IMG/VR virus record: IMGVR_UViG_2563366843_000006
DNA: 10,451 nucleotides
From: a virus
Lineage: Duplodnaviria > Heunggongvirae > Uroviricota > Caudoviricetes
Direction: 5' to 3' (one strand)
The notes under the pieces are model-generated. The model was not told the DNA's origin. It saw only the letters and a list, made by a program, of their open reading frames with translations, and did not search any database. The position numbers were made by a program, and so were the translations under genes. Positions 1-10,451 of this stretch are shown in pieces (positions within the stretch are counted from its first letter, which is position 1; each line of letters starts with the position of its first letter).

Positions 1-600
1 ATGCGTAAATTATGTGCTGTTATTCTGTCCGCAGTAGTCTGGCTGGTTGCCGCTGGTACGCCAGCAAGCGCAGCAGAGCATCAGTCCACACTAAGCGCCG
101 GGTATCTTCAGACCCATACTGATATGCCAGGCAGTGATGACCTGAAGGGCATTAACGTGAAATACCGTTATGAATTTACGGACACGCTGGGGCTGGTGAC
201 GTCATTCAGTTATGCCAATGCCAAAGATGAGCAAAAAACGCATTACAGCGATACCCGCTGGCATGAAGATTCAGTGCGTAACCGCTGGTTCAGCATGATG
301 GCGGGGCCATCTGTACGCGTGAATGAATGGTTCAGTGCTTATGCGATGGCAGGTGTGGCTTACAGCCGTGTTTCGACTTTTTCCGGGGATTATCTCCGCG
401 TAACTGACAGCAAGGGGAAAACGCACGATGTGCTGACCGGAAGTGATGACGGTCGCCACAGCAACACGTCTCTGGCGTGGGGGGCTGGCGTGCAGTTTAA
501 CCCGACCGAATCCGTGGCCATTGATATTGCTTATGAAGGCTCCGGCAGTGGTGACTGGCGCACTGACGGTTTCATCGTGGGTGTCGGTTATAAATTCTGA
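1..600 (+). CDS. lom: Outer membrane protein Lom (Ail/Lom/PagC-family beta-barrel), prophage moron
   Basis: 199-aa ORF with an N-terminal signal peptide (MRKLCAVILSAVVWLVAAGTPASA/AEH), amphipathic beta-strand pattern and C-terminal Phe (GVGYKF). Closely matches my recollection of phage lambda Lom. Lies immediately upstream of stf as in lambda and is followed by an intrinsic terminator. Confidence 0.9.
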   Translation: MRKLCAVILSAVVWLVAAGTPASAAEHQSTLSAGYLQTHTDMPGSDDLKGINVKYRYEFTDTLGLVTSFSYANAKDEQKTHYSDTRWHEDSVRNRWFSMMAGPSVRVNEWFSAYAMAGVAYSRVSTFSGDYLRVTDSKGKTHDVLTGSDDGRHSNTSLAWGAGVQFNPTESVAIDIAYEGSGSGDWRTDGFIVGVGYKF

Positions 601-627
601 TTAGCCAGGTAACACAGTGTTATGACA

Positions 628-653
628 GCCCGCCGGTTCAGGCGGGCTTTTTT
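628..653 (+). terminator. Rho-independent terminator downstream of lom
   Basis: Perfect 7-bp GC-rich stem GCCCGCC (628-634) / GGCGGGC (641-647) with loop GGTTCA, followed by TTTTTT (648-653). Confidence 0.65.
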
Positions 654-664
654 GTGGAGTGGAT

Positions 665-3040
665 ATGGCAGCAGTAAAAATCTCAGGTGTGCTGAAAGAT
701 GGTGCGGGAAAACCAATACAGAACTGCACTATTCAACTGAAGGCAAAGCGTAACAGCACCACGGTACTGGTGAACACGGTGGCCTCTGAAAATCCGGATG
801 AAGCCGGGCGTTACAGCATGGATGTTGAGTATGGCCAGTACAGCGTCATCCTGCTGGTTGAAGGTTTTCCGCCTTCACATGCCGGGACCATTACCGTCTA
901 TGAAGGCTCCAGACCAGGTACGCTGAATGATTTTCTCGGTGCCATGACGGAAGAGGATGTCATGCCGGAGGCATTGCGTCGTTTTGAGGCAATGGTGGAA
1001 GAAGTGGCACGCAACGCCGAAGCCGCCTCTCAGAGCGCAGCGGCGGCAAAGAAATCCGAAACTGCAGCGGCATCATCGAAGAACGCGGCGAAAACCTCAG
1101 AAACGAATGCAGCTAACAGCGCACAGGCGGCAGCGACCTCACAGACTGCATCGGCAAACTCCGCGACAGCAGCCAAAAAATCAGAAACCAATGCGAAAAA
1201 CAGCGAGACAGCCGCAAAGACGAGCGAAACCAACGCAAAGTCCAGCCAGACGGCAGCGAAAACCAGCGAAACGAATGCCAAAGCCAGTGAAACTGCGGCG
1301 AAAAACAGCCAGGATGCAGCGGCCCAAAGCGAGAGTGCCGCAGCTGGTTCTGCGACTTCAGCAGCTGGATCAGCAACTGCTGCGGCTAACAGCCAGAAAG
1401 CTGCGAAGACGAGTGAAACCAACGCAAAGTCCAGCCAGACGGCAGCGAAAACCAGCGAAACGAATGCCAAAGCCAGTGAAACTGCGGCGAAAAGCAGTCA
1501 GGATGCAGCAGCCGAAAGCGAGAGTGCTGCAGCTGGCTCTGCAAGCGCGGCGGCTGCTTCTGCCACTGCATCAGCCAACAGTCAAAAAGCTGCAAAAACC
1601 AGTGAAACCAACGCAAAGGCGAGCGAGACTGCGGCGGCTAACTCGGCGAAAGCATCCGCTGCAAGCCAGACGGCTGCAAAAGCAAGTGAAGACGCAGCCA
1701 GAGAGTATGCAAGCCAGGCTGCGGAGCCGTATAAACAAGTATTGCAGCCGCTTCCCGATGTGTGGATACCGTTTAACGATTCACTGGATATGATTACGGG
1801 CTTTTCGCCGTCATATAAAAAGATTGTTATTGGTGATGATGAAATAACGATGCCTGGCGATAAGGTTGTAAAGTTTAAACGCGCATCAAAAGCAACTTAC
1901 ATTAATAAATCTGGTGTGCTGACAGAGGCTGCCATTGACGAGCCACGGTTTGAACGTGATGGCCTGCTTATTGAGGGGCAAAGAACAAACTACATGCTCA
2001 ATTCGGAAAACCCTGCCAGTTGGGGGCGATCGTCAAATATGGATGTGCCCGAAACAGGGACGGATAGTTTTGGTTTTACCTATGGAAAGTTTGTCTGCAA
2101 CGATTCTCTGATTGGGCAAACCTCAGCCATTAATATGGCATCAATTGCTGCAACAAAGTCAGTTGATGTCTCAGGCGATAATAAACACGTGACAACCTCA
2201 TGTCGTTTTAAAACAGAACTGCAGGTAAGGTTGCGTATCCGGTTTGATAAATATGACGGTAGCGCAACAACTTTTCTTGGTGATGCGTATATTGATACAC
2301 AAACGCTTGAAATTAATATGACAGGCGGTGCTGCCTCAAGGATTACTGCGAGAGTCAGAAAGGACGAAGCTACCGGATGGATTTTTGCAGAGGCAACAAT
2401 TCAGGCAATTGATGGGGAGCTAAAAATAGGCTCTCAGATACAGTATTCTCCTAAGCAGAGCGGGGCAACCGTATCTGGTGACTATATTTATCTGGCCACC
2501 CCACAAGTAGAAGATGGGCCTTGTGTATCATCTTTTATTATATCAGGAGCGACGGCGGCGACCCGCGCAAGCGATATAGTTACAGTTCCAATTAAGAATA
2601 ATCTTTATAATCTTCCTTTTACGGTTCTTTGTGAGGTACATAAGAACTGGTATAAAACGCCAAATGCAGCGCCACGTGTTTTTGATACCGGCGGTCATCA
2701 AACCGGAGCGGCTATTATTCTTGGCTTCGGTCGTTCAACAGATTACGACGGATTTCCTTATTGCGATATTGGAGGAGCTAACAGACGGGTAAACGAAAAC
2801 GCATCGCTTGAAAAAATGGTTATGGGGATGCGTGTAAAGTCAGAGCAGTCTACGTGCTCAGTAAGTAACGGGCATATATCCAGCGAAACAAAAACCACAT
2901 GGTCCTGTATTCAGAACACCGCAATTATCCGTATTGGAGGCCAGACTACAGCCGGGTTACGTCATTTATTTGGTCATGTCAGGAATTTCAGAATATGGCA
3001 CAAGGCATTGACTGATGCTCAGGTGGGGGAGTCAATCTAA
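665..3040 (+). CDS. stf: Side tail fibre protein (lambda Stf-like N-terminal anchor, Ala/Ser/Thr-rich repetitive shaft, divergent C-terminal receptor-binding region)
   Basis: Long ORF (track 659-3040 from GTG). ATG at 665 is preferred because GGAG at 656-659 sits 5 nt upstream. N-terminus MAAVKISGVLKDGAGKPIQNCTIQLKAKRNSTTVLVNT... matches my recollection of lambda Stf. Central KTSETNAK-type repeats. The C-terminal ~430 aa is more AT-rich and ends ...LRHLFGHVRNFRIWHKALTDAQVGESI, reminiscent of a LamG/concanavalin-like lectin fold (tentative). Confidence 0.85.
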   Translation: MAAVKISGVLKDGAGKPIQNCTIQLKAKRNSTTVLVNTVASENPDEAGRYSMDVEYGQYSVILLVEGFPPSHAGTITVYEGSRPGTLNDFLGAMTEEDVMPEALRRFEAMVEEVARNAEAASQSAAAAKKSETAAASSKNAAKTSETNAANSAQAAATSQTASANSATAAKKSETNAKNSETAAKTSETNAKSSQTAAKTSETNAKASETAAKNSQDAAAQSESAAAGSATSAAGSATAAANSQKAAKTSETNAKSSQTAAKTSETNAKASETAAKSSQDAAAESESAAAGSASAAAASATASANSQKAAKTSETNAKASETAAANSAKASAASQTAAKASEDAAREYASQAAEPYKQVLQPLPDVWIPFNDSLDMITGFSPSYKKIVIGDDEITMPGDKVVKFKRASKATYINKSGVLTEAAIDEPRFERDGLLIEGQRTNYMLNSENPASWGRSSNMDVPETGTDSFGFTYGKFVCNDSLIGQTSAINMASIAATKSVDVSGDNKHVTTSCRFKTELQVRLRIRFDKYDGSATTFLGDAYIDTQTLEINMTGGAASRITARVRKDEATGWIFAEATIQAIDGELKIGSQIQYSPKQSGATVSGDYIYLATPQVEDGPCVSSFIISGATAATRASDIVTVPIKNNLYNLPFTVLCEVHKNWYKTPNAAPRVFDTGGHQTGAAIILGFGRSTDYDGFPYCDIGGANRRVNENASLEKMVMGMRVKSEQSTCSVSNGHISSETKTTWSCIQNTAIIRIGGQTTAGLRHLFGHVRNFRIWHKALTDAQVGESI
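1211..1623. repeat. In-frame tandem duplication inside stf, period 189 bp (63 aa), about 2.2 copies, embedded in a wider field of shorter KTSETNAK-coding repeats (about 1040-1690)
   Basis: Near-identical blocks: CAACGCAAAGTCCAGCCAGACGGCAGCGAAAACCAGCGAAACGAATGCCAAAGCCAGTGAAACTGCGGCGAAAA starts at 1231 and again at 1420; a third partial unit begins near 1610. Confidence 0.75.
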
Positions 3041-3321
3041 TGAAAGATTTAACACTCAAATTTGCCGACAGGGCCGACTTTTCGGCCTTTATGGATAGCA
3101 CTGGCTATTATGATGACGAGTCGATGCAGGATGATATTCTTATCGACGTGATAGGTAACGTGTACAAAGAAACCGGAGAACTGACTGAAGATGGCGAACC
3201 GGTATGTGTTAAGGAAGACGGATATTTTGTAAACGTGCGCATCATTAATGATTCGCAAATATCGTCATTATTCGATGAATACGTGGTTGCTGTTGAGCAT
3301 CAACTTCGTGGCTGGATGTGA
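3040..3321 (+). CDS. Hypothetical small acidic protein (93 aa), translationally coupled to stf; possibly tail-fibre associated
   Basis: ATG at 3040 overlaps the stf stop TAA (3038-3040) by 1 nt; GGGGGAG 8 nt upstream. Asp/Glu-rich, no TM segment. Function not recognisable by eye. Confidence 0.55.
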   Translation: MKDLTLKFADRADFSAFMDSTGYYDDESMQDDILIDVIGNVYKETGELTEDGEPVCVKEDGYFVNVRIINDSQISSLFDEYVVAVEHQLRGWM

Positions 3322-3330
3322 GGAAGAAAA

Positions 3331-4371
3331 ATGGCTACATCGACAGTAATTCCTGATGACATCAAAACGCTAAAATCCGACGTTAGCAAATTAAAAAACG
3401 ATCAAGGAAGCTACGCAACAAAATTATATGTAGACAGCAAAGATGAAATCGTTGGTGACTGGTCTGCTTCATGGTATCAGCAGGTATTGCCAACTAGCGG
3501 AGCTATATTTGGGAGAAAACTCCGCTCAACTCACAGGACGGCAGGTGTTGAGGATGCGTATTGCGAACTATACCTCAAAAAATGGATAGACAGTCCAGGT
3601 AACGCAATGGCGCGCCTTAACCTGAACGATAACGGGACAAACATTTGCTGGGACTTTACCAACCTTTATGGCGGTACGATGATTTTTCCCGGTGACAGCG
3701 GATACCTCAAAATGGGTAACTGCCTTATGTCATACAGCAAGCGTGGAAGTAGCGCGCTTATTAAATTTGATTACACCGACACATTACAGATCAAATATGC
3801 CAATCATGGGTCAACCATGACATTAAACACACAGGGAACCGCTTATGCTGGTGTTACTGCTCAATTGTGGGGCAACTCCAGCCGTCCTGTTGTTTATGAA
3901 GTCGGTGTTGATGGTGGCGCTTATATGTTCTATGCGCAGAAAAATACCGATAACACCTATATGTTAAGCGTTAATGGTGCATGTCATGCCACCGCATTTA
4001 ACCAGCATTCCGACCGGGATCTGAAAGACAACATTCAGGTGATCGATAATGCAACCGACCGCATCCGTAAAATGAACGGCTATACATACACGCTTAAAGA
4101 AAACGGTATGCCCTATGCTGGTGTCATTGCACAGGAAGCTCTGGAAGCAATCCCAGAAGTTGTAGGTTCCGCAATGAAATATCAGGACGGTGCGAGCGGA
4201 TCGGAAGGTGAAGAAGGTGAACGTTATTACACAGTAGATCATTCTGGTGTTACTGGCTTGCTTGTTCAGGTAGCCAGAGAGTCAGACGACAGGATAACAG
4301 CACTGGAAGAAGAAAACGCAGAATTAAGACAAAGATTATCTGCAATTGAGGCGGCGCTTGCGTCTAAATAA
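3331..4371 (+). CDS. Tail fibre/tailspike-like protein with C-terminal intramolecular chaperone auto-processing domain (peptidase S74-like)
   Basis: 346-aa ORF with AGGAAG SD 4 nt upstream. The C-terminal ~115 aa (SDRDLKDNIQVIDNATDRIRKMNGYTYTLKENGMPYAGVIAQEALEAIPEVV...YYTVDHSGVTGLLVQVARESDDRITALEEENAELRQRLSAIEAAL) matches the pattern of the chaperone domain of phage endosialidases and T5 L-shaped fibre pb1: Ser-Asp at the expected autocleavage point, a VIAQE...PE segment, and a terminal coiled coil. Confidence 0.8.
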   Translation: MATSTVIPDDIKTLKSDVSKLKNDQGSYATKLYVDSKDEIVGDWSASWYQQVLPTSGAIFGRKLRSTHRTAGVEDAYCELYLKKWIDSPGNAMARLNLNDNGTNICWDFTNLYGGTMIFPGDSGYLKMGNCLMSYSKRGSSALIKFDYTDTLQIKYANHGSTMTLNTQGTAYAGVTAQLWGNSSRPVVYEVGVDGGAYMFYAQKNTDNTYMLSVNGACHATAFNQHSDRDLKDNIQVIDNATDRIRKMNGYTYTLKENGMPYAGVIAQEALEAIPEVVGSAMKYQDGASGSEGEEGERYYTVDHSGVTGLLVQVARESDDRITALEEENAELRQRLSAIEAALASK

Positions 4372-4377
4372 TATTAA

Positions 4378-4400
4378 GGGGCCGAGTGCCCCGTTTTATT
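4378..4400 (+). terminator. Possible weak intrinsic terminator after the fibre-like gene
   Basis: GGGGC (4378-4382) / GCCCC (4388-4392) stem with 5-nt loop, then GTTTTATT. Short stem, so possibly only partial termination. Confidence 0.4.
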
Positions 4401-4413
4401 GGGTAGGATGAAA

Positions 4414-4701
4414 ATGGATATAACACCTTTCCTTCATGCGCTTTGTGCTGTGGCTGCGCAGCTACTGATTGGTCTTTTTACCGGAAACTGGGCTTACGGG
4501 GCGATAGCCGGTTGTACGTTCTTCATTGCTCGTGAACATACCCAGGCAGAATATCGCTGGATTGAAATGTTCGGGCATGGCAAGCGTATGAATATGCCGT
4601 GGTGGGGTGGTTTTGATCCACGCGTGTGGGATGTAGGAAGCCTTATGGATTTTTCTGTGCCGGTGGTGGCGTGTCTGCTGGTCTGGCTGTTTATCCGTTA
4701 A
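4414..4701 (+). CDS. Small predicted inner-membrane protein (about 96 aa), unknown function
   Basis: ORF in track (4399-4701 from TTG). ATG at 4414 preferred because AGGA at 4405-4408 sits 5 nt upstream. Hydrophobic segments FLHALCAVAAQLLIGLFTGNWAYGAIAGCTFFIA and SVPVVACLLVWLFI suggest 2-3 TM helices. Confidence 0.6.
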   Translation: MDITPFLHALCAVAAQLLIGLFTGNWAYGAIAGCTFFIAREHTQAEYRWIEMFGHGKRMNMPWWGGFDPRVWDVGSLMDFSVPVVACLLVWLFIR

Positions 4702-5068: not shown

Positions 5069-5157
5069 TTAAGATCAAAGACGTTTACATCTCGTACCTC
5101 ACAAGCAGCTTTTACTTGCTGAGGGCGGTAGCGTTTCTATTATTATCTCAAATCAAT

Positions 5158-6150
5158 ATGGATAATGTAATGAGTGAAACTAAACACATATCTGAAATGG
5201 CAGAAAGGGTGGCAAATAATTTATTCTCAATTTTTAAATGGAAAAGGAAGATTGCTTCCGATTTCAGTTGGGATTGTGTAAGCCCTGATGAACATGGAGG
5301 AAAAAAAGATCATCCGTCTGATTGCGTTTTTTATTACAGAGATCCCTATGATAATGAAGTTAAATATATTAATACTGATCTTAAGAGTTATGCGAAAGGC
5401 TCAATAACAAAAGAGCAAATTAATAAAGCAATCAGTTCTCTTTCCTATGCAACGAATTGCGCACCATATAATGATAATTGGAAAAGGTTATTTAAACCAG
5501 AAGGGAATTGGTCTGTAATAGGTATGCTGTTTGTTTATAATCATTGCGGTGAATATAATGGGGACTTTAATGAAATAGTTAAGGCGGTTGAAAATGATGT
5601 CAATCATTTGGATAATGAAAAAATGATATATATTTTCTCCCCAGATAGAATTAGAATATTAAATAGTATTGCTAATGATATCAATGTAATGATAGGGAAA
5701 GAAGAATTACCGTCTAAAAATCATTTTAGCTTCTTTCATCCCAATGAGATATTAACAAAAAATCATTTCAACCATGATTATTCTGAGCCAGCAACTATTA
5801 ATGTTCTTTCTTCACCTTGGATTATAATTAAGCATGCAGATTGTGAGAATGAAAAGGCAGGCTATTTAATATATTATACTAAAGATGGTTCAGAAGATGA
5901 CGAATTTGACTATTTTATTGATGCTCTAAGCTATTACCAAATAATCAATAATACAAGTAATGTCAGAATCAAATTAACAATAAAAAATGAATTTGCAGCA
6001 AGTAATCTTTTAAACTCAATTAGTAAATACTATCAGTCTCTCGGTCGTACCGAAAAAGAATCAATGCAAATCGCCAATACAATGGTAAAAGGTACTATTG
6101 ATTTGGTTACACCACAGTTTTCTGCTAATGAAATTGGAGTTTTACCATGA
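5158..6150 (+). CDS. Hypothetical protein A of AT-rich three-gene operon (about 331 aa); N-terminal region has a tentative PD-(D/E)xK nuclease-like motif arrangement
   Basis: Long ORF in a roughly 30% G+C region; track ORF 5116-6150 begins at TTG. First ATG is at 5158, alternative at 5170; neither has a strong SD. Stop TGA overlaps the start of gene B (ATGA at 6147-6150). Asn/Lys/Ile/Tyr-rich, no TM or signal peptide. Confidence 0.75.
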   Translation: MDNVMSETKHISEMAERVANNLFSIFKWKRKIASDFSWDCVSPDEHGGKKDHPSDCVFYYRDPYDNEVKYINTDLKSYAKGSITKEQINKAISSLSYATNCAPYNDNWKRLFKPEGNWSVIGMLFVYNHCGEYNGDFNEIVKAVENDVNHLDNEKMIYIFSPDRIRILNSIANDINVMIGKEELPSKNHFSFFHPNEILTKNHFNHDYSEPATINVLSSPWIIIKHADCENEKAGYLIYYTKDGSEDDEFDYFIDALSYYQIINNTSNVRIKLTIKNEFAASNLLNSISKYYQSLGRTEKESMQIANTMVKGTIDLVTPQFSANEIGVLP

Positions 6151-7253
6151 GTAATCCTGAGAAAAAATTTGGTCATAGTATTTACTACATGAACGATCAA
6201 AATATTAGGGATGGTTTACTAGCGCAGAAAGTTAAAGCATCACATTTGATAAAAATTTTAAAAGATCGCAACATTTTAGTATCACCTCTATCTTCAAAAG
6301 AAGAACTGATAAACATGTTAAAGTTTATCAGATTCGATTATTATGATTATGTTTATTTATCATCAATTCTTGCAAATCAAGATAAAAAAGAAAGTAAGTC
6401 AAGTATTGATATAGATAAGAAAGTCACTGCTAAGCAAATATTAAGTACGTTTGAGTCGATTAAAGGAGTGTTAGAAGCTCGTCAAATTACAGCCGAGGTT
6501 TCTAAACAAAACAGTAAAAAAATAACTATCAACTTTGAGTATGTTGAGTTTGATCATTCGAAACCACCTATGCGTCAAAAATCATTCCGTAAAGGGGTAG
6601 TTGAATGTGATATAACTGCTACAGGTGCGATGCTTAATTATCCAGCAAATAAAGTTGGGGCAATAATAAAAGACCATTTAATCACACAACTTTCCAAAAA
6701 GTTAGATACTGAATTGAAGCCAATCGAATTTGATTTTGAGAACTCCAGTGTTGCAACTAGAAATAATTTCTTCCTTAGTGTAATCAATAATGTTGAAAAG
6801 TATGAAGTATACGATGTTGTCACTGTGGCAGTTAAGAAGATAGAAGAGAAAAAAGGAAAGGAAAGCTCCTCGTCAGCGGATTCAGACAATGATTCGGTAG
6901 GGGAAGCATTTACTGGAGAAGTTAGAAACGCCATTCTACGCGGAAATCAGATTTTAACTTCAAAAGTATACAGTGGGTTAAATACAGGGAATTATTATAT
7001 TTATAAAATTACTTGGAAGATTAGAGAAATAATTCCGGGCTTGGGATCTGAACAATCTGATTGTTATACGGTTGAGATTGAGTTTAGTGATAAAGATAAG
7101 GCTAAAGGACTAAAGTATTGTGTTAAAACTGTTCAGCGATTCTCCTCAAAAAATAGACTGAATGTTACAACTGAAAATCCTTTAAAAAATGAGCAAGAAA
7201 AATTAGGAAAGCTCATTTATAAAACAGCCCTAGATGTCTATTCTAAAATATAA
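6147..7253 (+). CDS. Hypothetical protein B of AT-rich three-gene operon (368 aa); two regions separated by a Ser/Asp-rich acidic linker
   Basis: ATG at 6147 with GGAG SD at 6136-6139 (7-nt spacing), overlapping the gene A stop. No recognisable catalytic signature by eye; linker KKGKESSSSADSDNDSVGEAF at about 6850-6910. Confidence 0.8.
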   Translation: MSNPEKKFGHSIYYMNDQNIRDGLLAQKVKASHLIKILKDRNILVSPLSSKEELINMLKFIRFDYYDYVYLSSILANQDKKESKSSIDIDKKVTAKQILSTFESIKGVLEARQITAEVSKQNSKKITINFEYVEFDHSKPPMRQKSFRKGVVECDITATGAMLNYPANKVGAIIKDHLITQLSKKLDTELKPIEFDFENSSVATRNNFFLSVINNVEKYEVYDVVTVAVKKIEEKKGKESSSSADSDNDSVGEAFTGEVRNAILRGNQILTSKVYSGLNTGNYYIYKITWKIREIIPGLGSEQSDCYTVEIEFSDKDKAKGLKYCVKTVQRFSSKNRLNVTTENPLKNEQEKLGKLIYKTALDVYSKI

Positions 7254-7268
7254 ATGGGGGATGGCATT

Positions 7269-7946
7269 ATGGAAAAAAGAATCGTTTTTTATGATTTTGA
7301 AACTCCTTTTAATCAGGAGCAAATCAGCAAAAGATTGATTGAAAACCAATTTACAAAAGATGCGATCTCAGGTTTTAGTTTACAGAAAAATAATAGTACT
7401 GGGATTTACTTCCGACATATTAAAAAGATTATTAACATTGACGTTGTGTTAACACCTTTTGGTGAAGAATATGAAAATACCACAATCGCCTACGCTACCA
7501 ATGAGGTGAAAATAACTGATAAGTCTCTTCGTATAATTAACCCATCTAGAACACTTGCTCCCTTTCGAACAGATTTGGTGAAGTCTCTAGACTTTCAGTG
7601 CACTATAAGTAATAAGAATATAGAATTAAGTCCACTATTGTTATCTTTGAGAGAAAGGAATGTTAATATCAACTTGACTGATATTGAACTTACTACATAT
7701 GACCTCTTTAAGGATTCTCGAGTTAAAATGGTCATTTCTTCTAATAGTGATTTAATTGGCAAAGCAGAATCCTATTTAAATAATGTTAAGTCCAACATCA
7801 CAAAAATAGGTTTTTCTTTATTGTTTAATGGTGATTATTATTTTGTTGAAATTGGTTGTAAAGGTTCATTGAAAATATCAGGGGATTTAATAGAGGATAA
7901 TTTGGAATATTATATTATTAATGAAATTCTATCTTTAGATGCTTAA
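7269..7946 (+). CDS. Hypothetical protein C of AT-rich three-gene operon (225 aa from ATG 7269; 230 aa if ATG 7254 is used)
   Basis: ORF directly abutting the gene B stop (TAA 7251-7253). GGGGGA at 7256-7261 is 7 nt upstream of ATG 7269, favouring that start. AT-rich codon usage like A and B; followed by a terminator at 8027-8057. Confidence 0.75.
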   Translation: MEKRIVFYDFETPFNQEQISKRLIENQFTKDAISGFSLQKNNSTGIYFRHIKKIINIDVVLTPFGEEYENTTIAYATNEVKITDKSLRIINPSRTLAPFRTDLVKSLDFQCTISNKNIELSPLLLSLRERNVNINLTDIELTTYDLFKDSRVKMVISSNSDLIGKAESYLNNVKSNITKIGFSLLFNGDYYFVEIGCKGSLKISGDLIEDNLEYYIINEILSLDA

Positions 7947-10046: not shown

Positions 10047-10451
10047 CTAGATTAATGGTTTATTATTTTCTACATCTTCAATATATAAAAGCGTATTATC
10101 AATGGCGTAGTAACTGCGTTTGTTATGATTAACATCAGTAACCCACCGGAAAACGCCCGCGTCTGCCAGTGTTGAACAGTATTCCCGAAATGTTGATTTT
10201 CCGCAAATATGAAGCAATGCGGCCTCTTTTATTTTAGCAGGGTTCTTGGTCGTACTAACTTTTAACAGGTTCCTGGTTCCTCTTAATAACAAAACCGTGT
10301 CATCGTGAGTAATAATTCTGATGTTATCCGTAGCCAGATAATAAATGTAATGTGCAATACGGTGATGTTTTAATTCTGAATAAAACCAGGAGAAGTTTTG
10401 CTCTTTTCTCACTTGCTCAAACATCTTTTGAAAAACAACAACCTGATCCAT
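10047..10451 (-). CDS. ycgX: Hypothetical protein, likely YcgX-like (DUF1398 family); start codon lies at the window edge
   Basis: 134-aa ORF with ATG at 10449-10451 (minus strand) and stop at 10047-10049. Assignment rests on synteny downstream of iraM in E. coli K-12 and on protein size; the sequence itself was not recognised with certainty. Confidence 0.5.
   Translation of the reverse strand: MDQVVVFQKMFEQVRKEQNFSWFYSELKHHRIAHYIYYLATDNIRIITHDDTVLLLRGTRNLLKVSTTKNPAKIKEAALLHICGKSTFREYCSTLADAGVFRWVTDVNHNKRSYYAIDNTLLYIEDVENNKPLI

Follow-up and report, generated by a model that had tools for sequence, protein, structure and literature searches.

Of which parts is a side tail fibre built, and what does its tip bind? 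The question is raised by stf, the side tail fibre gene that occupies positions 665..3040 (+ strand; 791 amino acids (aa) from an ATG to a TAA stop) of a 10,451-nucleotide (nt) stretch of Caudoviricetes DNA (IMG/VR record IMGVR_UViG_2563366843_000006), hereafter the window, which is the tail-fibre end of a lambdoid prophage. We consider it likely, with a confidence that applies to the explanation as a whole, that Stf consists of three exchangeable segments, namely a lambda-type anchor, a heptad shaft and a tip of two jelly rolls that binds glycan.

A search for open reading frames (ORFs) starts the frame at an in-frame GTG at 659 (793-aa ORF, 659-3040). The ATG at 665 has a GGAG Shine-Dalgarno box upstream and matches the MAAVKISG start common to the homologues, so that 665-3040, as given in a preliminary description of this DNA, are the right coordinates. 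The exact 791-aa protein is public (WP_001605287.1/ELG86969.1) and its 90%-identity cluster has 4554 members; the full-length gene is 96-97% identical at the nt level to those of phages 2G7b, Tritos, HannyBb and PhiR63_1, and at least 80% of it is found in 556 of 5426 complete Escherichia coli genomes (top match 99.3%). It is therefore a common, sequenced and functionally uncharacterised allele. Indeed, the Stf of 2G7b (a Nesevirus), Tritos, HannyBb and PhiR63_1 is the same gene, including the two 189-bp units described below, with point differences only and with the same downstream genes (of 93 and 346 aa) at 99% identity; these records carry generic 'tail fibre' or 'tail protein' labels, and no functional data were found for them. 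Both the gene and the principles that it illustrates, those of a modular tail fibre, are already known and are ordinary biology, and the only under-described element that we found is the portable cassette in which the tip is joined by the 93-aa gene and a short fibre.

Anchor, junction and mosaic structure

The N-terminal anchor (aa 1-~120; 665..1024, + strand) is of lambda type. The 'prophage tail fibre N-terminal' family PF08400 matches aa 5-134 with 223 bits (cut-off 26.6), the first 94 residues are ~89% identical to the N-domain of lambda Stf (PDB 9e7m, E 1.4e-49), and nt similarity to lambda, at 84%, covers window positions 473-1017 only, i.e. it begins at the end of lom and then stops. 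A full-length AlphaFold2 model places a beta domain at aa 1-80 (strands at aa 4-78), followed by a linker. The preliminary description had called this region GC-rich and lambda Stf-like; the likeness to lambda holds, while the GC content of 52.5% is not notably high. Through the PF08400 domain the fibre would plug into a lambda-like tail tip.

The comparison with lambda also shows where the likeness ends. Lambda Stf (the Ur-lambda stf, orf-401/orf-314 in lambda PaPa, with its chaperone Tfa) lies at the same locus, downstream of J and lom, just as lom stands directly upstream of stf here and the order J-lom-stf occurs in the 97%-identical phage 2G7b. It shares the PF08400 anchor and an Ala/Ser/Thr-rich repeat shaft and is likewise an accessory fibre for reversible adsorption. 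Its homology to the present protein, however, ends at ~aa 120, and the 58% protein similarity past the anchor is that of Ala/Ser/Thr-rich repeat composition. Distally, lambda Stf has a lambda/T4 gp37-like tip where the present protein has two jelly rolls; the nt comparison with lambda gave no similarity to orf-314 or tfa, and no Tfa-type Pfam family was detected in the downstream ORFs, where the 93-aa gene and a short fibre with an S74 domain are found instead. The lambda-type anchor thus carries a different distal module.

The junction with this module lies just upstream of the conserved motif QPLPDVW, at 1741..1745 (+ strand). At this point homology to otherwise unrelated siphoviruses begins, with 96% identity to the Seuratvirus ESCO3, 81% to VogelGryff and 80% to 'Campylobacter phage C13' (in tinuso it starts at window position 1711), and this start coincides with a drop in GC content from 0.56 to 0.44 between 1650 and 1800, in agreement with the AT-richer composition that had been noticed from about 1740 onward. 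We considered whether the drop is purely an amino-acid artefact of the Ala-rich shaft. This is partly true, as the high GC content of the shaft resides mostly in second codon positions (0.68; Ala, Ser and Thr codons), but GC at third codon positions falls too, from 0.53 in the anchor and 0.50 in the shaft to 0.38 in the tip.

The tip travels as a unit. From QPLPDVW to the stop codon it measures 428-431 aa in most of the relatives listed, whatever N-terminus precedes it, and this ~429-aa tip stands behind at least five unrelated N-termini, which include lambda-type anchors, a divergent PF08400 domain in Queuovirinae, and Drexlerviridae-type, T5-like and P2-like (PF03406/PF12571) forms, among others. 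A tblastn search gave 217 phage records that contain it, spread over the lambdoid, Drexlerviridae, Dhillonvirus, Queuovirinae, T5-like and rV5-like groups, and an exhaustive HMMER scan (E<=1e-3) returned 2073 clusters at 50% identity. The lateral fibres of Queuovirinae (VogelGryff, ESCO3, JenP1/2), Drexlerviridae (tinuso and others), Dhillonvirus and T5-like and rV5-like phages possess the same tip cassette together with the 93-aa gene, at 35-96% identity, but differ in their anchors and shafts, which are specific to the tail type; in VogelGryff the third gene is annotated as 'chaperone'. Further joints occur inside the tip: PhiR49_1 and IdasGreatGrand match the window only up to ~1955-1990, and ev207, 4A7, phage 21 and others up to 2549, both breakpoints being at the edges of conserved tip blocks. 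Similarity to lambda that ends at ~1017, similarity to other phages that begins at 1741-1745 and the varied N-termini together give a three-segment homology map that directly supports the mosaic structure and exchange of host-range modules proposed earlier, and the protein shows no uniform similarity to any one Stf along its length.

Among the phage records, the cassette was also present, at up to 80% nt identity, in MG065692.1, MG065654.1 and MG065652.1 ('Campylobacter phage C13/C15/C11') and in four 'Listeria' phage records. At 59, 100 and 135 kb they have the sizes usual for coliphages of the Queuovirinae, T5-like and rV5-like groups, and their host labels look doubtful.

The repeat shaft

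Between the anchor and the tip, a long alpha helix is predicted at aa 102-351 (968..1717, + strand), on the basis of the AlphaFold2 model, of heptads in the protein and of 21- and 42-nt repeats in the DNA. From ~aa 123 to 351 the sequence is an unbroken array of 33-36 heptads of the form x-S-(E/Q/A)-T-(A/N)-A-(K/A), in which one heptad position is Ser in 32 of 36 cases and another Ala in 30 of 36; the Fourier spectrum peaks at a period of ~7. The Ser/Ala heptads show the 3/4 spacing typical of a small-residue coiled-coil core; the register, which is directly observed, is compatible with a coiled coil. The full-length model resolves two helices (aa 102-226 and 243-351) with a predicted local distance difference test (pLDDT) score of 32-69 over the shaft. 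We infer from these features that the ~250 residues of Ser/Ala-core heptads form an alpha-helical coiled-coil shaft, which is presumably trimeric.

Within the shaft, Tandem Repeats Finder (TRF) reports an array of period 189 at 1199-1636 (2.3 copies, 85% matches, score 631), which sits within nested 21- and 42-nt periodicities; the wider field of KTSETNAK-type repeats described before is thus real. The first unit (63 aa, 9 heptads) spans 1231..1419 and the second 1420..1608, both on the + strand, and a third is present as a stub of ~28-40 nt, to which belongs the end of the TRF array (1609..1636, + strand), as the partial third unit of the preliminary description. That description had further spoken of a near-perfect tandem duplication. 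The duplication exists, but 25 mismatches bring the identity of its two units down to 86.8%, and only the first 90 nt (1231-1320 versus 1420-1509) are identical throughout.

Comparison of alleles shows how the shaft varies, and this length series directly supports the length-variable fibre suggested earlier. An allele of 728 aa (P0007; cluster of 219 members) equals the present one minus exactly one 63-aa unit, while other alleles differ by 14, 21, 28 or 42 aa and others carry no unit or one. In 98 of the 102 homologues sampled, the difference in shaft length from the present allele is a multiple of 7 residues, with shaft lengths of 144, 158, 165, 207, 221, 242 and 270 aa; the two-unit allele of the window is the longest regular form in this sample, in which no three-unit allele occurs. 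The repeats themselves suggest that copy number would change by slippage or by unequal recombination between them, and shaft length would be set by the number of heptad blocks, here two blocks of 9 heptads. Since the canonical helical rise is 1.5 Å per residue, each 63-aa unit would add ~9 nm.

Two groups of observations concern the annotation of this region. Firstly, ORFs of 278, 146, 87 and 76 aa run in another frame of the + strand (957-1793) and on the minus strand (1030-1616). As candidate genes we rejected them, taking them to be by-products of a stop-poor repeat rich in Ala codons; the lambda record annotates a comparable antisense ORF, orf206b, inside stf. Secondly, tip-only ORFs of 416 aa from E. 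coli (P0044, P0053 and P0055; start MITGFSPSYKKI) account for hundreds of database entries under the name 'phage head spike fiber domain-containing protein' (the P0044 cluster has 364 members), and in many complete E. coli genomes the region that matches stf is annotated as two features. Both suggest that stf is frequently disrupted, or mis-called, in the repeat shaft.

Fold and probable ligand of the tip

The tip comprises a conserved N-terminal block (1745..2002), a first jelly roll (1967..2569) that corresponds to the 'phage head spike fiber' domain NF048003, and a second jelly roll of LamG/concanavalin A (ConA)-like type (2558..3037, boundaries approximate), all on the + strand. The N-terminal block, with the motifs PLPDVWxP, ATYINKSG and EPRFE..GLLIEG..TN, has low entropy in close and distant homologues alike and contains invariant columns. 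As the first homologue searches returned almost only close E. coli alleles, a profile of distant representatives was then used to widen the diversity, and the structure prediction was made from an alignment of 118 sequences with 27-91% identity. The resulting AlphaFold2 model of aa 340-793 is almost all-beta (pLDDT 84.6, predicted template modelling score 0.82) and contains two jelly rolls of ConA/LamG type.

With this model, Foldseek against the PDB gave, at probability 1.0, tandem laminin LG4-5, the lectin-like BoNT/TeNT Hc-N domain, pentraxin and the sialic-acid-binding CBM40, and further AbnA domain 4, the top matches being baseplate proteins of the Pseudomonas phages Pa193 and E217; in BFVD, many phage proteins possess the same two-domain module under the name 'Concanavalin A-like lectin/glucanase'. 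NF048003 matches aa 437-637 with 52.5-54.4 bits (cut-off 36), and the profile of distant relatives retrieves the RcGTA head spike fibre Rcc01080 (PDB 6tb9, E 5e-35), Pa193 gp46 and E217 gp45 (~1e-12) and, for the second half of the tip, a LamG-like S-layer domain. Other PDB sequence matches of the single protein (e.g. to the RNA polymerase II CTD and to depolymerase N-termini) were dismissed as compositional noise from the low-complexity coiled coil. Pfam could not carry the lectin claim, because on the whole protein it finds the N-domain only, Laminin_G_3 (PF13385) remaining below its gathering score (17.4-19.3 versus 27.6 bits) on the last 53 residues (nt 2867-3025). PF13385 is nevertheless present in many homologues of ~30% identity, found in Leclercia, Atlantibacter, Citrobacter and Chromobacterium, which bear the name 'LamG-like jellyroll'. 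The LamG-like ending GHVRNFRIWHKALTDAQV, which had been recognised from its pattern in the preliminary description, is thus borne out by the predicted fold, by the Foldseek matches and by these homologues; more precisely, the tip has two jelly rolls and not one. A lectin-like fold is indeed predicted for the C-terminal region.

Entropy along the family alignment separates conserved blocks (aa 360-445, 610-660 and 765-793, the last being the end of the second jelly roll) from the variable bodies of the first (aa ~450-610, hypervariable) and second (aa ~660-765) jelly roll, which are highly variable also between closely related alleles of E. coli. Such a pattern would be expected of a fixed scaffold that presents variable ligand-binding surfaces.

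The closest characterised relative suggests a function. Rcc01080 (NF048003; PDB 6tb9/6tsu) has a homologous first jelly roll and shares its flanking motifs ATY, PRF/YE, LLxE..TN and QLExG...SxIPT....TRAxD, a homology that is directly observed, but it is a single subunit of 325 aa that sits on capsid pentamers through an N-terminal peptide, whereas the present module ends the coiled coil of a tail fibre and has the LamG-like second domain in addition. Rcc01080 is a single-subunit, two-lobed, beta-rich and lectin-like protein that was found experimentally to bind Rhodobacter capsular polysaccharide (PMC7296036, PMC10218006). In Aeromonas salmonicida (CP091480.1, L008:4001-6259), a 578-aa protein with the tip module and its ~100-aa partner are found right after capsid and SU10_adaptor genes and not after a J-like gene; there the module may serve as a head or neck fibre, as in RcGTA.

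By analogy, the tip of Stf is most likely a non-enzymatic lectin for a surface glycan that acts as a reversible primary receptor. We infer a glycan ligand from the capsule binding of Rcc01080, from the conserved/variable pattern and from the O-antigen context of related fibres, for in the siphovirus groups with this cassette O-antigen is held to be the primary, dispensable receptor of the lateral fibres (PMC8594841, PMC11990801). The ligand would be a variable surface polysaccharide (O-antigen, capsule or lipopolysaccharide); specificity would lie in the hypervariable bodies, and the conserved blocks would act as scaffold and as recombination joints.

An enzymatic tip, i.e. a glycanase or depolymerase of the ConA-like lectin/glucanase superfamily, is hardly credible on this evidence. 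The superfamily does include glucanases, one distant homologue bears the label 'sialidase' in its source, and the tip has invariant Glu and Gln residues and a weak match to laminarinase 16A (chain 1gui, E 0.09), but neither Pfam nor NCBIfam detected a glycoside-hydrolase family, the structural neighbours are binding modules and not catalytic domains, and the invariant motifs, being common to the non-enzymatic RcGTA fibre and to the baseplate wedge proteins of E217 and Pa193, look like a signature of the fold.

Several points nevertheless weigh against a lectin on a trimeric, length-variable shaft. On Stf itself Laminin_G_3 falls below threshold. The tip family also has invariant polar residues (R, Y, K, R, E, N, Q, E), and this constellation suggests a conserved site that a lectin of purely variable ligands leaves unexplained; its role may lie in the structure or in contact with a partner. 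The pLDDT of the shaft is low, as one would expect when a coiled coil is modelled as a monomer, and our models are monomeric, whereas the fibre would be a trimer with three tips; as no three-unit allele occurred in the sample, a shaft 'expandable' beyond two units is hypothetical. In the literature we found no binding data for the tip module in any coliphage and nothing relevant on LamG together with tail fibres. Finally, LamG folds bind proteins (laminin, neurexin) besides glycans. Lambda's own Stf has been reported to use OmpC (PMC11338833).

The last two points, together with the presence of laminin LG among the Foldseek matches, speak for a tip that binds a protein receptor, e.g. an outer-membrane porin, instead of a glycan. 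We regard this as distinctly improbable: the tip is without homology to the C-terminus of lambda Stf, its closest characterised relative binds capsule (PMC10218006), its other structural neighbours (CBM40, AbnA domain 4) are carbohydrate-binding modules, and 2073 clusters fit the diversity of glycans better.

Partner genes, surroundings and significance

Two genes follow stf. The first encodes an acidic protein of 93 aa (3040..3321, + strand), whose start overlaps the stf stop (TAATG). Similarly, an acidic protein of 92-100 aa starts at or next to the stop of the tip gene in VogelGryff, tinuso and PhiR41_1 (41-51% identity), in a Leclercia prophage (33%, with a tip that is only ~30% identical) and at the Aeromonas locus (30%), so that the position is kept in Seuratvirus, Warwickvirus and beyond; the residues D3, D36, G39, E53, G61, Y62, N65, R67, V83 and W92 are invariant. 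By tblastn the gene is present in 179 phage records, in which it adjoins the tip gene wherever both positions are listed; T5-like and rV5-like phages such as Baret, L6jm, T5_ev219, phita32 and APECc02 are among them. Pfam and NCBIfam match none of their families to the protein. As this directly observed linkage with the tip is constant, whether or not a third gene is present, the 93-aa protein probably helps to assemble the tip or is an accessory subunit of it.

The second gene encodes a short fibre of 346 aa (3331..4371, + strand; phrog_4563) whose N-terminus (MATSTVIPDDIKTLK) is conserved and whose middle part is variable, with a Peptidase_S74 domain at the C-terminus (nt ~4009-4164; PF13884, S74 intramolecular chaperone, 52.8 bits). 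A short fibre of this type usually follows the cassette but is absent in PhiR41_1 and Aeromonas. Its N-terminus is common to the lambdoid, Seuratvirus and Warwickvirus versions, whereas the anchors of the first genes differ, and for this reason the short fibre probably docks on the cassette, which would give a branched fibre of dual specificity like LtfA/LtfB of phage DT57C.

In the T5-like DT57C, too, two fibre genes lie side by side and a tail-specific anchor is encoded by the first alone, and its LtfB has been inferred to attach through LtfA (PMC4728585, PMC10713586). The present locus resembles this system in that the second fibre gene is without a tail anchor and has an N-terminus independent of the tail type, but it lacks the autocleaving S74 end on both fibres, PF13884 being found on the 346-aa protein only and the end of Stf being LamG-like. 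LtfA itself, on the other hand, has an S74 domain of its own and is without both the LamG module and a 93-aa partner; as it ends in the S74 domain, we rejected it as an instance of the same module.

These relations raise the question whether the two jelly rolls are mainly a structural hub that carries the short S74 fibre, the latter being the real receptor-binding protein. The order of the three genes is kept from E. coli phages to the Leclercia prophage with its ~30%-identical tip, the conserved start of the short fibre (MATxTVIPxDITNLK) behind differing first-gene anchors speaks for docking within the cassette and not on the tail, the tip module has strongly conserved blocks, and there is a precedent in LtfA, which can serve purely as the attachment site of LtfB (PMC4728585). 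On balance we think this unlikely, for PhiR41_1 and Aeromonas have the module and the 93-aa gene without an S74 fibre, the bodies of both jelly rolls are hypervariable as surfaces that contact a ligand would be, and the homologous head spike fibre of RcGTA itself binds polysaccharide (PMC10218006). The roles of hub and lectin are, however, not mutually exclusive.

A more far-reaching proposal joins the two, and we put it forward tentatively, as one that we doubt more than we believe. The tip, the 93-aa gene and the S74 fibre might form a single portable 'branched lectin fibre' cassette, which can be placed behind any trimeric shaft at QPLPDVW, so that three independently folded, monomeric (RcGTA-like) heads of two LamG domains per coiled coil would bind glycan; a second trimeric fibre would be attached to them by way of their invariant polar surface and of the 93-aa protein. 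If this were true, a single recombination event would give two receptor specificities. No paper that describes a branched three-gene architecture or the 93-aa family was found in the literature.

The remainder of the window comprises the following elements. At its left end is lom (1-600; Ail_Lom, 423 bits), and between lom and stf a GC-rich hairpin with a T-run behind it (cagcccgccggttcaggcgggcttttttg; ~626-655, + strand) looks like an intrinsic terminator directly upstream of the stf ribosome-binding site. Downstream of the short fibre lies an ORF for a hydrophobic, membrane-like protein of 100 aa (4399-4701, + strand; phrog_1443, no Pfam family); its homologue in PhiR41_1 is located directly after the 93-aa gene, with no short fibre between them. 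Positions 5116-7946 (+ strand) form an unrelated three-gene island of low GC content (27-35%; ~0.25 at third codon positions) with ORFs of 344, 368 and 230 aa, for which neither Pfam nor NCBIfam detected a family and which match PHROGs of unknown function and the PADLOC entries PDLC03004/5/6 'Hp1/Hp2/Hp3' (E 8e-61, 1e-27 and 4e-13). This island, found in only 4 of the 5426 complete E. coli genomes and in all four at 99.9% identity, looks like candidate anti-phage defence cargo in the place where the b region of lambda lies. At the right edge (10047-10451, minus strand) a DUF1398 protein (161 bits) is encoded by a complete ORF of 134 aa, whose ATG falls on the last bases. Rfam and tRNA scans of the window were empty.

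Host recognition begins with a step that is determined by the side and lateral tail fibres, and chimeras of lambda Stf are already being engineered for targeted DNA delivery (PMC11338833; bioRxiv 10.1101/2025.02.28.640725). The present locus is a clean natural example of what such work depends on, namely fusion joints, at ~aa 120, at QPLPDVW and at further points inside the tip, a length dial, the shaft changing in whole heptads, and a widespread, uncharacterised tip of lectin type with a constant small partner gene. Current understanding of tail fibres is left unchanged by these results, whose value lies in the annotation and in a practical hint, namely that a functional transplant of the tip would probably need the 93-aa gene along with it.

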